Numbered from the stretch's first letter, positions 8,583 to 11,182 are shown. The stretch: DNA of 15,076 nucleotides from a virus (IMGVR_UViG_2531839662_000027:1-15076); one strand, 5' to 3'. Numbers and translations: made by a program. The notes: generated by a model from the letters alone, not told the origin.

Positions 8583-8606
8583 ACAACCTCCTTAGTACAT
8601 GCAATT

Positions 8607-8676
8607 ATTATCACCGCTAGAGGTAAAATAGTCAACACGCACGGTGTTAGATATTTATCCCTTGCGGTGATAGATT
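8607..8676. promoter_or_regulatory. Lambda-type right operator: oR1 (8609-8625), oR2 (8633-8649), oR3 (8656-8672), with pR (minus strand) and pRM (plus strand)
   Basis: 17-bp operators TATCACCGCTAGAGGTA, CAACACGCACGGTGTTA and TATCCCTTGCGGTGATA match lambda oR1/oR2/oR3 with one change in oR1; pRM-like TAGATA (8648-8653) and TAGATT (8671-8676) precede a leaderless cI ATG at 8683; pR -35/-10 read on the minus strand at 8635-8630 and 8612-8607. Confidence 0.85.
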
Positions 8677-8682
8677 TAACGT

Positions 8683-9396
8683 ATGAGCGCAAAAAAGAAA
8701 CCGTTAACACAAGAGCAGCTTGAGGACGCACGTCGTCTTAAAGCTATTTATGAAAAAAAGAAAAATGAACTTGGCTTATCTCAGGAATCTGTCGCAGACA
8801 AGATGGGGATGGGGCAGTCAGGTGTTGGAGCTTTATTTAATGGCGTCAATGCATTAAATGCTTATAACGCTGCATTGCTTGCAAAAATTCTCAACGTTAG
8901 CGTTGAAGAATTTAGCCCTTCAATCGCCAGAGAAATCTACGAGATGTATGAAGCGGTTAGTATGCAGCCATCACTCAGAAGTGAGTATGAGTACCCTGTT
9001 TTTTCTCATGTTCAGGCCGGGATGTTCTCGCCTGAGCTTAGAACCTTTACCAAAGGTGATGCGGAGAGATGGGTAAGCACAACCAAAAAAGCCAGTGATT
9101 CTGCATTCTGGCTTGAGGTTGAAGGCAACTCAATGACAGCTCCGGCAGGATCGAAACCAAGCTTTCCTGATGGAATGTTAATCTTGGTTGACCCTGAACA
9201 ACCTGTTGATCCTGGTGATTTCTGTATCGCTAGACTTGGTGGTGATGAATTCACATTCAAAAAACTGATCAAAGATAGTGGGCAAGTGTTTTTGCAACCA
9301 CTTAACCCGCAGTTTCCAATCATCCCATGCAATGAGAACTGCAACATTGTAGGCAAGGTTATCGCCAGTCAATGGCCTGAAGAGACGTTTGGATAA
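8683..9396 (+). CDS. cI: cI repressor, lambda immunity type (237 aa)
   Basis: Translation is colinear with lambda cI as recalled ([53 protein letters not shown]...[28 protein letters not shown]...) with a handful of substitutions; includes the LexA-type Ser/Lys autocleavage domain. Confidence 0.95.
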
Positions 9397-9403
9397 CACG
9401 TAA

Positions 9404-9841
9404 ATGATTAAAGAACGTATTTCTTATATCATTCCGATTGCGATGGATGAAGGCAACCCCGTAACTCCAGTTCTTATCTATGAAATGGATAAAGACTCCC
9501 ATGAAGTGGATCTGTCATTTGGCGCTTTTTTTATCGGCCTTAAGGCTACAAAAAAATATTCCATAGGCATTGAGGTTTTCAATGCTCAAGAAATACCGAT
9601 ACCAATTGACACAAAACTGTACTCCAACCATAAGTTTTTTACGGTAGCAGAAGCCAACGATGGAGAAACCATCGTATCAACTTCTATGAGAATTAACTTC
9701 CCAAGGGTGAAAATTATCAAGCCTGGGATATTCGAAGTTAGAGCATCACTGGTTAATCCTGAGAAAGGCGAAGTAATTGATGTAAAAAGTTCGTTTTTTG
9801 ACGTGAAGATAACAGGATCAGTTCGCGATGAGTTTAGATAA
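9404..9841 (+). CDS. Hypothetical 145-aa protein in the rex position (first gene of the cI-linked module)
   Basis: ATG 7 nt after the cI stop, no terminator between; no transmembrane segment evident; AT-rich; no similarity to RexA that I can recognise. Confidence 0.6.
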   Translation: MIKERISYIIPIAMDEGNPVTPVLIYEMDKDSHEVDLSFGAFFIGLKATKKYSIGIEVFNAQEIPIPIDTKLYSNHKFFTVAEANDGETIVSTSMRINFPRVKIIKPGIFEVRASLVNPEKGEVIDVKSSFFDVKITGSVRDEFR

Positions 9842-10199
9842 CAAGGTTGCTCAGCTTCGTCCAAATCAAAACATATCTCGCCCAATTGGACACTATTCCA
9901 CTGATGATGCATACTCACGGCATGGTGGAGGAAACGGCGGAGGTAACATGCTTGAGGCTAGAGTTGCAAAGCTAGAGTCTGATGTTGAATACATCAAGCG
10001 CGATCTCGCTGAGGTAAAGTCAGATATAAAATCTGTTGATTCTCGTCTGTCAGGTATTGAGACAAGCATTAGCTCAGCAAAAACCACCATTAAGGCATCT
10101 GCGGTCGTTGTCAGTTTCGTGTTCGCATTTTGCGCCTACATTTTTGGAAGTTATGTTTCCAAAATCCTTGATGCCTTAAACGGACTCGTTCTTAAGTAA
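9828..10199 (+). CDS. Hypothetical small membrane protein (123 aa, or 80 aa from the internal start at 9958): Gly-rich linker, coiled coil, C-terminal hydrophobic segment
   Basis: Overlaps the previous ORF by 14 nt; heptad-like LEARVAKLESDVEYIKRDLAEVKSDIKSVDSRL; hydrophobic AVVVSFVFAFCAYIFGSYV; internal ATG at 9958 is preceded by GGAGGTAAC; a strong terminator follows. Confidence 0.6.
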   Translation: MSLDNKVAQLRPNQNISRPIGHYSTDDAYSRHGGGNGGGNMLEARVAKLESDVEYIKRDLAEVKSDIKSVDSRLSGIETSISSAKTTIKASAVVVSFVFAFCAYIFGSYVSKILDALNGLVLK

Positions 10200-10206
10200 C
10201 ACACAA

Positions 10207-10233
10207 CCCGGCCTCAGTGCCGGGTTTTCTTTG
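10207..10233 (+). terminator. Rho-independent terminator ending the cI operon (t-imm equivalent)
   Basis: Perfect 6-bp GC stem CCCGGC/GCCGGG with 6-nt loop followed by TTTTCTTTG, directly after the second rex-slot ORF. Confidence 0.7.
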
Positions 10234-10383
10234 CCTCTCGATCCCCCTTCCCAACAACACATAACCATTTGTATTTATTGGAAAACTAATAGATACAACT
10301 TGCTAAACAGTGCAATTCTGATCCCTCACCTACCTAACAATTCACCCCTGCAAAAAATAAATCCATATAAAAAACATACAGAT

Positions 10384-10446
10384 AACCATCTGCGGTGATA
10401 AATTATCTCTGGCGGTGTTGACACAAATACCACTAGCGGTGATACT
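10384..10446 (+). promoter_or_regulatory. Lambda-type left operator and pL: oL3 (10384-10400), oL2 (10404-10420), oL1 (10428-10444); pL -35 TTGACA (10418-10423), -10 GATACT (10441-10446)
   Basis: AACCATCTGCGGTGATA, TATCTCTGGCGGTGTTG and TACCACTAGCGGTGATA match lambda oL3/oL2/oL1 as recalled; 17-bp spacer between -35 and -10; oriented toward N. Confidence 0.85.
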
Positions 10447-10491
10447 AAACACATCAGCAGGAAGCTGGAAGCCAAACGGAACAGATTGGCA

Positions 10492-10526
10492 TGCTCTTTA
10501 ACTTCGATGGGGCGCTGACAAAGCGC
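10492..10526 (+). promoter_or_regulatory. nutL site: boxA (TGCTCTTTAAC, 10492-10502) and boxB hairpin (GCGCT-GACAA-AGCGC, 10512-10526), P22 type
   Basis: boxA-like motif followed 9 nt later by a 5-bp stem/5-nt loop hairpin whose sequence matches the P22 boxB as I recall it; located between pL and the N-like gene. Confidence 0.7.
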
Positions 10527-10645
10527 AAACAGATACCAAACGAGATGGGTTTGGCGGTGATGTGAATTGCAGCAGTAACGACAGCAACCAGAAGATCAGC
10601 ATCTGGCGCATCACCACCAAAGCTATTTCACATGAGGAAAACATC

Positions 10646-10954
10646 ATGACGGTAATCGTGTACGGAAAATCAACATTTGCAGGAAATGCCAAGACTCGCC
10701 GTCATGAGCGGCGCAGAAAGCTGGCCATCGAGCGTGATTCCATCTGCAACATCATCGATTCGATCTTCGGCGCAGACAGTGAGGAGCCTGTTCAGGAAGC
10801 CCCGAGAAAACGTTTAAGCCTTTCTGAAAAAGCAATATCACTCGGAATCCTTCGCTGCAAGAAGGCAGATGAATGCAGTGGAAGTATTTGCCTGCCAAAC
10901 GTAGCCATTTACGCGGCAGGCTACCGGAAATCAAAACAACTGACGGCGAGGTAA
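10646..10954 (+). CDS. N: N-family transcription antiterminator, P22 gene 24 type
   Basis: Arginine-rich motif GNAKTRRHERRRKLAIERD near the N-terminus matches the P22 N RNA-binding peptide as recalled; ATG at 10646 preceded by GAGGA; first gene after pL/nutL. The track ORF from 10562 is an upstream in-frame extension, judged not used. Confidence 0.8.
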   Translation: MTVIVYGKSTFAGNAKTRRHERRRKLAIERDSICNIIDSIFGADSEEPVQEAPRKRLSLSEKAISLGILRCKKADECSGSICLPNVAIYAAGYRKSKQLTAR

Positions 10955-11182
10955 GTGATGAATCAGACATACATTCCATCATGCTTGAGAAATCTGCCAA
11001 AGCAGAAAGCAAAGCCCCGCAAGCAAGCCATAAAGGACGCTAAGGCAGAGGTTATTGATCAAGCAATACAATTGCTCAGGGAGGAGTTAAGAAGTGGCAA
11101 GCTCGAAGGAATGATGATGCCCTATCAGCGCGGATATCTATCGGCGATTAGTAAGTTGGAAGTACTGAAGAGTGAATTATGA
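10955..11182 (+). CDS. Hypothetical 75-aa basic/helical protein
   Basis: ORF starting GTG-ATG immediately after the N stop (coupled); no recognisable motif. Confidence 0.45.
   Translation: MMNQTYIPSCLRNLPKQKAKPRKQAIKDAKAEVIDQAIQLLREELRSGKLEGMMMPYQRGYLSAISKLEVLKSEL

Follow-up and report, generated by a model that had tools for sequence, protein, structure and literature searches.

A probable natural mosaic of lambda-type immunity and P22-type N antitermination in a defective P22-like prophage of Escherichia coli

We analysed a stretch of viral DNA of 15,076 nucleotides (nt) (IMGVR_UViG_2531839662_000027:1-15076, hereafter the window), with emphasis on the region from the cro and cI genes to the N antiterminator gene. 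This region is very probably the immunity and early-left control region of a defective P22-like prophage, in which a cassette of lambda specificity lies inside a P22-type N antitermination system as a natural mosaic. With equally high confidence, the element that carries it is a prophage remnant of the Sf6/HK620/P22 kind, located at the argW site of E. coli. In the porcine diarrhoeal E. coli strain UMNF18, positions 2,882,519-2,895,506 are 100% identical to the window except for two insertions in the window. An intact relative, a 39-kb P22-like prophage at argW, is present in E. coli FHI_NMBU_03 (NZ_CP019455.1, ~375.2-414.3 kb). Phages lambda (NC_001416) and P22 (NC_002371) were used as references throughout.

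Repressor, operators and promoters of the lambda type

The following features made up the lambda-type part of the region (operators are given without strand):

8607-8635, minus strand: pR, lambda-like in a promoter scan (-35 TTGACT, -10 GATAAT)
8609-8625: oR1, TATCACCGCTAGAGGTA, one mismatch to lambda
8633-8649: oR2, exact lambda match
8656-8672: oR3, exact lambda match, overlapping pRM
8683-9396, plus strand: cI repressor gene of the lambda immunity type, intact, 237 amino acids (aa), with Pfam domains HTH_3 and Peptidase_S24
about 10205-10236, plus strand: Timm-like intrinsic terminator from a terminator scan, closing the cI operon, where lambda homology restarts
10384-10400: oL3, exact lambda match
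10404-10420: oL2, exact lambda match
10418-10446, plus strand: pL, lambda-like in a promoter scan (-35 TTGACA, -10 GATACT)
10428-10444: oL1, TACCACTAGCGGTGATA, one mismatch to lambda, in the position that also differs in oR1

The encoded repressor shares 94.9% identity with lambda CI, compared to 35% with P22 C2. Its 12 changes relative to lambda CI (T3A, I55V, K71N, T155A, A174P, E176D, R197K, Y211F, M213I, S219N, S221N and V222I) spare the helix-turn-helix, the Ala-Gly cleavage site and the Ser/Lys catalytic residues. Four of the six operators are exact lambda 17-mers, and oR1 and oL1 carry one substitution each. The operator spacers are those of lambda (7 and 6 base pairs (bp) in oR, 7 and 3 bp in oL) and the pRM region (8648-8682) has the same sequence as in lambda. 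The half-site GCGGTGWTA was found five times, against 0.15 expected in shuffled sequence. At the DNA level, identity to lambda was 92.3% over 8506-9392 and 90.0% over 10205-10465. The original prediction, which was made from the sequence alone and read oR1-3 and oL1-3 as lambda 17-mers next to a lambda-like cI, was supported by these comparisons.

The substitutions in oR1 and oL1 are the identical G to A change, beside the central base pair. Phage PhiR5_2 and the prophages of strains A41 and FHI_NMBU_03 share the oR1 variant, and the oL1 variant is found in A41, FHI_NMBU_03 and all 17 IMG/VR contigs with a P22-type N. The paired change might retune the switch. On the protein side, T3A sits in the N-terminal arm of CI. 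A Timm feature like that of the window is annotated in the wild lambda-immunity phage CL707.

nutL and N of the P22 type

Downstream of pL, the features are those of the P22 antitermination system:

10492-10502, plus strand: nutL boxA, TGCTCTTTAAC, 10 of 11 positions shared with P22 (CGCTCTTTAAC)
10512-10526, plus strand: nutL boxB, GCGCTGACAAAGCGC, equal to P22 boxB-left at 15 of 15 positions
10646-10954, plus strand: N antiterminator gene of the P22 gp24 type, 102 aa, with the arginine-rich motif GNAKTRRHERRRKLAIER at residues 13-30

BoxA lies upstream of boxB with a spacer of 9 nt. BoxB GCGCTGACAAAGCGC occurs once in the window, while only 0.04 occurrences are expected in shuffled sequence even when two mismatches are allowed. 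In both the minimum-energy and the centroid structure it folds into a stem of 5 bp with a pentaloop, GACAA. The RNA in the complex with the P22 N peptide (PDB 1A4T) is this boxB 15-mer, and the peptide is NAKTRRHERRRKLAIERDT (PMC11480772). The arginine-rich motif of the window N equals that of P22 at 18 of 18 residues, so that both halves of the proposed P22 N/boxB pair were found unaltered. We also asked if boxB and N are closer to lambda than to P22, which was not the case. N is 68.6% identical to P22 gp24 over the full length (E 2e-47), and its comparison with lambda N gave a local match of 25%. In addition, N matches Pfam PF25694 over the full length (E 9e-41), the family to which P22 gp24 also belongs, and does not match PF11438, the family of lambda N.

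The identity to P22 gp24 is unevenly distributed: 40/42 over residues 1-42, 14/38 over residues 43-80 and 16/22 over residues 81-102. The N of PhiR5_2, which is of the 933W type, shares 95% identity with the last 22 residues. By these alignments N is a mosaic within the gene, with a P22-like start of 42 residues, a diverged middle and a 933W-type C-terminus. DNA identity of the N module to P22 is 73.5%, with gaps, and the segment from nutL to N has its closest DNA relatives in lambdoid phages of E. coli (96.2%) and in Shiga toxin (Stx) 2a-converting phages (95.7%). "P22 N" is therefore a label at the family level: it describes residues 1-42 well, but not the protein as a whole or its DNA. A PDB sequence search with N gave no match and is uninformative, since the solved P22 N entries are short peptides. 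An Rfam scan of 8000-12000 (E<=1) found no antitermination RNA family; the sole match was a spurious one to a plant miRNA.

The same boxB is also used by another antitermination system. Among 77 IMG/VR contigs with lambda oL1 and this boxB, 17 encode a P22-type N, ~55 an N of the 933W/H-19B type (Stx phages) and 5 are without an N call. When contigs with lambda oL1 are sorted by what follows it, 56 have the lambda boxB, 17 the P22-type N/nut and ~55 the 933W type, which makes the latter the commonest IMG/VR partner of the lambda-type oL besides lambda N. A P22-type N cannot be read from the boxB 15-mer alone, because these ~55 contigs, as well as phages mEp234 and HK106, pair it with a 933W/H-19B-type N. 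Together with the C-terminal identity described above, this raises the question whether the module in the window is really of the 933W/H-19B type. We consider this very unlikely. The window N has the P22 arginine-rich motif unaltered and matches P22 gp24 nearly completely over residues 1-42, whereas the 933W-type N starts with MTRRTQFKGNSRSRRRERLK. PF25694 scores 138.8 bits for the window N and 57.5 bits for a 933W-type N. Moreover, nutL of the window has a P22-type boxA and the 9-nt spacer, while the 933W-type leaders that were read (PhiR5_2 and mEp234; L004 3363-3700 and EF120460 373-988) are without a canonical boxA. PhiR5_2 was itself considered as a phage with the same join as the window and was rejected, as its N is of the 933W type.

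The 17 contigs with a P22-type N all have a 67-nt spacing and the "A" variant of oL1, and one of them encodes an N identical to that of the window. In some of the 17 the protein is chimeric, with a P22-type N-terminal half and a lambda/HK-like C-terminus; chimeras of this kind (...RKPRSEMGVTCVGRQKMKLGSKPLI) are encoded by six IMG/VR contigs.

Boundaries of the modules

The original prediction had placed the recombination junction between pL and nutL, at 10447-10491. The junction was found within this range and could be narrowed to a short block, and two further boundaries enclose two cargo genes at the position of lambda rexA and rexB:

10452-10467, plus strand: lambda/P22 junction block, CATCAGCAGGA(A/C)GC, at the pL transcript start
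9404-9841, plus strand: cargo gene 1 in the rexA slot, 145 aa, phrog_5893, function unassigned
9828-10199, plus strand: cargo gene 2 in the rexB slot, 123 aa, phrog_6136, function unassigned

Similarity to lambda stops at 10465 and similarity to P22 starts at 10452. The pL transcript begins with the block between them (~15 nt), which is common to lambda, P22, the 933W-type PhiR5_2 and the window in a five-way alignment. In this alignment the window follows lambda 5' of the block, where P22 is unrelated, and follows P22 3' of it. For other phages and genomes, too, the match to the N module sets in at 10450-10452. The additional boundaries lie from the cI stop codon to the cargo start (9393-9403) and from the cargo end to Timm (10200-10205), such that lambda rexA and rexB are replaced exactly.

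Distribution of the join in natural isolates

The junction from oL to N was covered in 18 of 5426 complete E. coli genomes with 88.7-100% identity, and the hosts of these 18 include swine, humans, ground beef, a marsupial and a wood-wren. The identical join in 18 independently assembled complete genomes and in 17 viral contigs, together with shuffled expectations of at most 0.04 for boxB and 0.15 for the operator half-site, leaves an assembly chimera or a chance likeness with a probability of practically nil. A laboratory origin, either as a construct, a classical P22/lambda hybrid or a cI-pL-N expression cassette, has to be considered, as the construction of lambda/P22 hybrids dates back to the 1970s (Botstein and Herskowitz 1974, in the reference list of PMC11893012) and lambda cI/pL cassettes are frequent in vectors. 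However, DNA identity is just 92% to lambda and 73.5% to P22 instead of about 100%, epsilon34-like genes take the place of rexAB, the element occupies the chromosomal argW site in a porcine isolate, and the same join recurs among wild isolates of swine, human, marsupial, bird and beef origin. A laboratory construct is thus vanishingly improbable.

When searching deposited phages at megablast sensitivity, none with the same oL-nutL join was found. A strict oL1-boxA-boxB pattern gave no matches in species-representative genomes, as expected with one genome per species. A looser pattern matched once, in contig JAJACG010000023.1 of a metagenome-assembled genome of a "Chlamydiales bacterium" (L142 6248-6347), where a lambda-type half-site is followed by the boxB 15-mer. 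This match is probably caused by enterobacterial prophage contamination of the bin.

An intact relative carries the complete hybrid system

The prophage of FHI_NMBU_03 has the P22-type virion genes in full (terminase, portal, scaffold, P22-family coat, gp4, gp10, needle, gp14, gp7, gp20, gp16 and tailspike), and in addition lysis genes, Q, nin genes, replication genes, cII, a full cro and a P22-type N. Its CI (WP_001274764.1, shared with intact prophages) and both cargo proteins are identical to those of the window, and DNA identity is 98.6% over 8506-10954. In FHI_NMBU_03 and A41 the TAA of the lambda-like cro is followed at once by CGCTCTTTATCAATCTGCACCGCCGACAACGCGG, which is a P22-type nutR (P22 CGCTCTTTACCAATCTGAACCGCCGACAACGCGG) and not that of lambda. 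In the intact relatives the lambda cassette thus has a P22-type nut site at either end, as a working hybrid requires. Further prophages with the cassette were found in UMNK88, A41 and others.

Deletions at the gp7-cro junction

In contrast to the intact relatives, the window lacks the genes between cro and gp7. Three features mark the site:

8126-8488, minus strand: 3' fragment of a P22 gp7-type DNA-ejection gene (~codon 109 to stop), the left flank of the deletion
8489-8508, no strand assigned: relic of a helicase gene, 17-20 nt, TAACCGCGAGGCATCGACTA, between the gp7 and cro fragments
8505-8582, minus strand: truncated lambda-type cro, which on translation has 25 codons and then a TAG formed at the deletion junction

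The gp7 fragment matches Pfam PF25688 (P22_gp7) at profile positions 110-230 of 230 (E 9e-62) and is collinear with the intact gp7 of FHI_NMBU_03 as far as 8488. The cro fragment agrees with intact cro for 77 nt and identity ends at 8506. Compared to FHI_NMBU_03, 19,045 bp are missing between 8488 in gp7 and 8506 in cro. The bases between the two fragments match exactly, and in collinear order, the replicative-helicase gene of an intact relative (L143 30654-30673). By our own arithmetic, a chance 17-mer match in 46 kb has a probability of about 5e-6. Because of this exact match, bases 8489-8505 were rejected as diverged gp7 or random filler. As the helicase relic is in collinear order, two deletions of ~16.6 and 2.4 kb must have taken place. 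They removed everything from codon 26 of cro to codon ~108 of gp7, leaving the helicase relic behind. The gp7-cro junction was found in UMNF18 only among the 5426 complete E. coli genomes.

The lost DNA contained nutR, cII/pRE, the replication genes, Q, and the lysis, terminase, portal and coat/head genes. No second boxB or P22 nutR-like site was found in the window with up to three mismatches. A functional lambda-type Cro is absent, as only codons 1-25 remain while the intact relatives encode full Cro; in UMNF18, cro is annotated in RefSeq as a partial pseudogene. The CI/operator system and the two-gene cassette at 9404-10199 survived the deletions intact. The element is thus defective, and replication, lysis or virion production are not possible.

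These findings bear on the earlier proposal of a P22-like virion carrying lambda immunity. The window retains a tailspike head-binding domain, homologues of gp20 and gp16 and intact cI, N, recT and torI, and with the intact relative at hand one could regard it as a complete, inducible temperate phage. This is extremely unlikely and is already refuted by gene content: cro is cut at codon 25, 19,045 bp are gone and with them nutR, cII, Q and the genes for replication, lysis, terminase, portal and coat, the tailspike gene is interrupted by IS1 and the gp16-like gene by an IS3-family element, and the whole element measures only ~13-15 kb from intS to dsdC. The proposal therefore holds for the lineage, as seen in the intact prophage of FHI_NMBU_03, but not for the copy in the window.

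Proposed working of the region and points against it

For the mosaic of lambda immunity and P22-type antitermination we propose the following working. The lambda cassette extends from pL/oL1-3 over Timm, the two cargo genes, cI and oR1-3/pRM/pR to cro. CI and Cro are expected to act on the DNA operators, and N on the boxA-boxB RNA of any transcript from pL or pR. As the repressor and antitermination systems are independent of each other, a swap of the cassette would be viable if both nut sites match N. CI made from pRM, presumably leaderless as in lambda, would repress pL and pR and confer lambda-specific superinfection immunity. The two cargo genes would be co-transcribed with cI on a transcript that ends at the Timm-like terminator. 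Upon RecA-stimulated cleavage of CI in the SOS response, pL is predicted to fire and N to bind the nutL boxB via its arginine-rich motif. N together with host Nus factors at boxA could then allow the polymerase to pass 11179-11209 and 11504-11525 into ral, recT and torI/xis. From pR, only the 25-residue Cro fragment and readthrough into the remnants of the ejection genes are expected.

The two sites 11179-11209 and 11504-11525 are terminator-like hairpins with T-runs on the pL strand, 3' of N, and the second comes after ral. They are candidate targets of N antitermination (tL1-like).

Several points weigh against this reading. The specificity of immunity, the activity of N and the inducibility of the pL operon were all deduced from sequence identity. 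The G to A changes in oR1 and oL1 together with the 12 CI substitutions could have shifted affinities, although the same operator and CI variants recur in intact prophages. The 31% divergence of N from P22 gp24 falls outside residues 1-42, and the contacts with host factors and polymerase may therefore differ. Finally, intS is frameshifted in UMNF18 and its position lies outside the window.

Comparison with known phages

The wild phages of Degnan et al. 2007 were assessed through their annotated GenBank records (EF120455-61) and citing papers. With the lambda immunity region the window shares CI at 94.9%, the six operators with lambda spacing, pL, pR, pRM and Timm. In the wild lambda-immunity phages HK244, HK542, HK544, CL707, mEp234 and HK106 divergence of the flanks sets in at the boundaries seen in the window, and in several of these phages rexAB is likewise replaced by other cargo. 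HK244, HK542, HK544 and CL707 differ from the window in having a lambda-type N and boxB. Phages mEp234 and HK106 have lambda operators and the boxB GCGCTGACAAAGCGC as the window does, but a 933W-type N. Unlike lambda and these wild phages, the window combines a P22 gp24-type N with cargo of the epsilon34 45/44 kind, a cut cro, the deletion of nutR, cII and pRE and the G to A change in oL1.

With P22 gene 24 and nutL the window has in common boxB (15/15), boxA (10/11), the motif (18/18), N residues 1-42 (40/42) and PF25694. In P22, however, the upstream promoter and operators are of the C2 type, whereas those of the window are of the lambda type. Apart from this upstream part, the window N differs in its overall identity of 68.6%, in its middle (14/38) and in a C-terminus that is nearer to the 933W-type N. 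The prophage of FHI_NMBU_03 agrees with the window in site and layout, CI, cargo and oR1/oL1 variants, but keeps cro, nutR, cII, replication, nin, Q, lysis and virion genes, while the window is without these 19 kb and has gained two insertion sequences (IS).

The Salmonella phages L/ST64T and epsilon34 are P22-like and combine a P22-type or related N/nut with a non-P22 repressor, and their N is also mosaic within the gene. Epsilon34 has in addition a homologous two-gene cargo 3' of its repressor, as in the window. In contrast to the window, their repressors are not of lambda specificity and the phages are viable. Phage L has the N-terminus of P22 gp24 and identical boxB sites with a different immC specificity (PMC8022706). 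In P22-like phages the specificities of repressor, N, replication and Q assort independently (PMC2629481 Table 1), and the section of PMC8585504 that cites Degnan 2007 describes the interval from cI to N as a known mosaic hotspot.

The arrangement is thus a common and already described kind of lambdoid mosaicism. The same lambda cassette is found naturally beside N/nut modules of the lambda, P22 and 933W types. The crossover sites are the ~16-nt block at the pL transcript start and, on the other side, the position directly after the cro stop codon; in the intact relatives the exchange of the repressor cassette leaves the nutL and nutR that enclose it in agreement with N. A strain with this element should be immune to phages of lambda immunity. 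Programs that call prophages will detect genes for a repressor, N, a tailspike and a recombinase, although the element is unable to make phage, and the importance of the finding lies mainly in correct annotation. The cargo pair in the rexAB slot is the remaining biology of note.

Cargo genes in the rexAB slot

Salmonella phage epsilon34 has a homologue of the 145-aa protein with 73% identity at its gene 45/44 locus, where gene 45 is the counterpart. The family of the 145-aa protein is small, with 20 clusters that are all from Enterobacterales where the source is named. Its confident structure model (predicted local distance difference test score, pLDDT, 86.7) is an all-beta sandwich with no more than generic structural neighbours. 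The 123-aa protein is glycine-rich at the N-terminus, contains a coiled-coil segment, has a hydrophobic segment at the C-terminus and gave a weak match to XhlA under the Pfam cutoff. In Edwardsiella and Dryocola prophages (L148 and L149) a homologue of cargo gene 1 lies directly 3' of an S24 repressor gene and overlaps an open reading frame (ORF) of ~103-114 aa; the N of the Dryocola prophage with the pair is of the lambda type. The pair is thus kept 3' of S24 repressors across differing immunity and N types.

The authors describing epsilon34 noted two genes downstream of the repressor "like rexA and rexB", which were without database matches (PMC2629481). It is plausible that the cargo genes, a candidate exclusion system, provide an exclusion function expressed in the lysogen. 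That the remnant as a whole is a retained, domesticated defence island and not neutral debris, with the pair, by prediction a soluble beta-sandwich protein and a small membrane protein with a coiled coil, as a RexAB-like exclusion or abortive-infection system that moves between immunity types, is a bolder view which we hold to be possible but doubtful.

Chromosomal setting and the remaining genes

The remaining features of the window, without strand, are the following:

953-1718: IS1 (InsA/InsB), within the tailspike gene, absent from UMNF18
5021-6334: IS3-family element of 1.3 kb with ORFs of 108 aa and 296 aa, within the gp16-like gene, absent from UMNF18
14876-15076: torI (excisionase)

In UMNF18 the element is flanked by tRNA-Arg (argW) and intS on one side and by dsdC on the other. 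The RefSeq annotation gives, in this order, the tailspike, an Arc-family protein, a gp16-like gene with a frameshift, a DNA-ejection protein, a "DNA transfer protein" and a Cro (both partial), a repressor of the LexA family, several hypothetical proteins, and Ral, RecT and TorI. The integration module is of the Sf6/HK620 style, with argW-intS at one end and torI-dsdC at the opposite end, in both UMNF18 and FHI_NMBU_03. The decayed prophage KplE1/CPS-53 of E. coli K-12 has the same layout at argW, with intS and torI at opposite ends. KplE1 is not known to retain a lambda-type cI/operator cassette or a P22-type N.

The P22-type virion set in the window is incomplete and consists of the tailspike, the gp16 homologue, gp20 (PF16928) and the C-terminal half of gp7 (PF25688). 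The tailspike gene, which encodes the head-binding domain PF09008, is broken by IS1, and the 8-bp overlap at this insertion is consistent with a target duplication.

A gene at 2858-3151 adjoins the tailspike gene and encodes a Mnt-like repressor, a 97-aa Arc-domain protein with a Mnt C-terminal domain. No match to an antirepressor family was found among the window ORFs scanned. In the related prophage AHM8C212RI an antirepressor gene is annotated in the interval adjoining the tailspike gene, the counterpart of 2858-3151. The Mnt-like gene may be an orphan leftover of an immI-type region.

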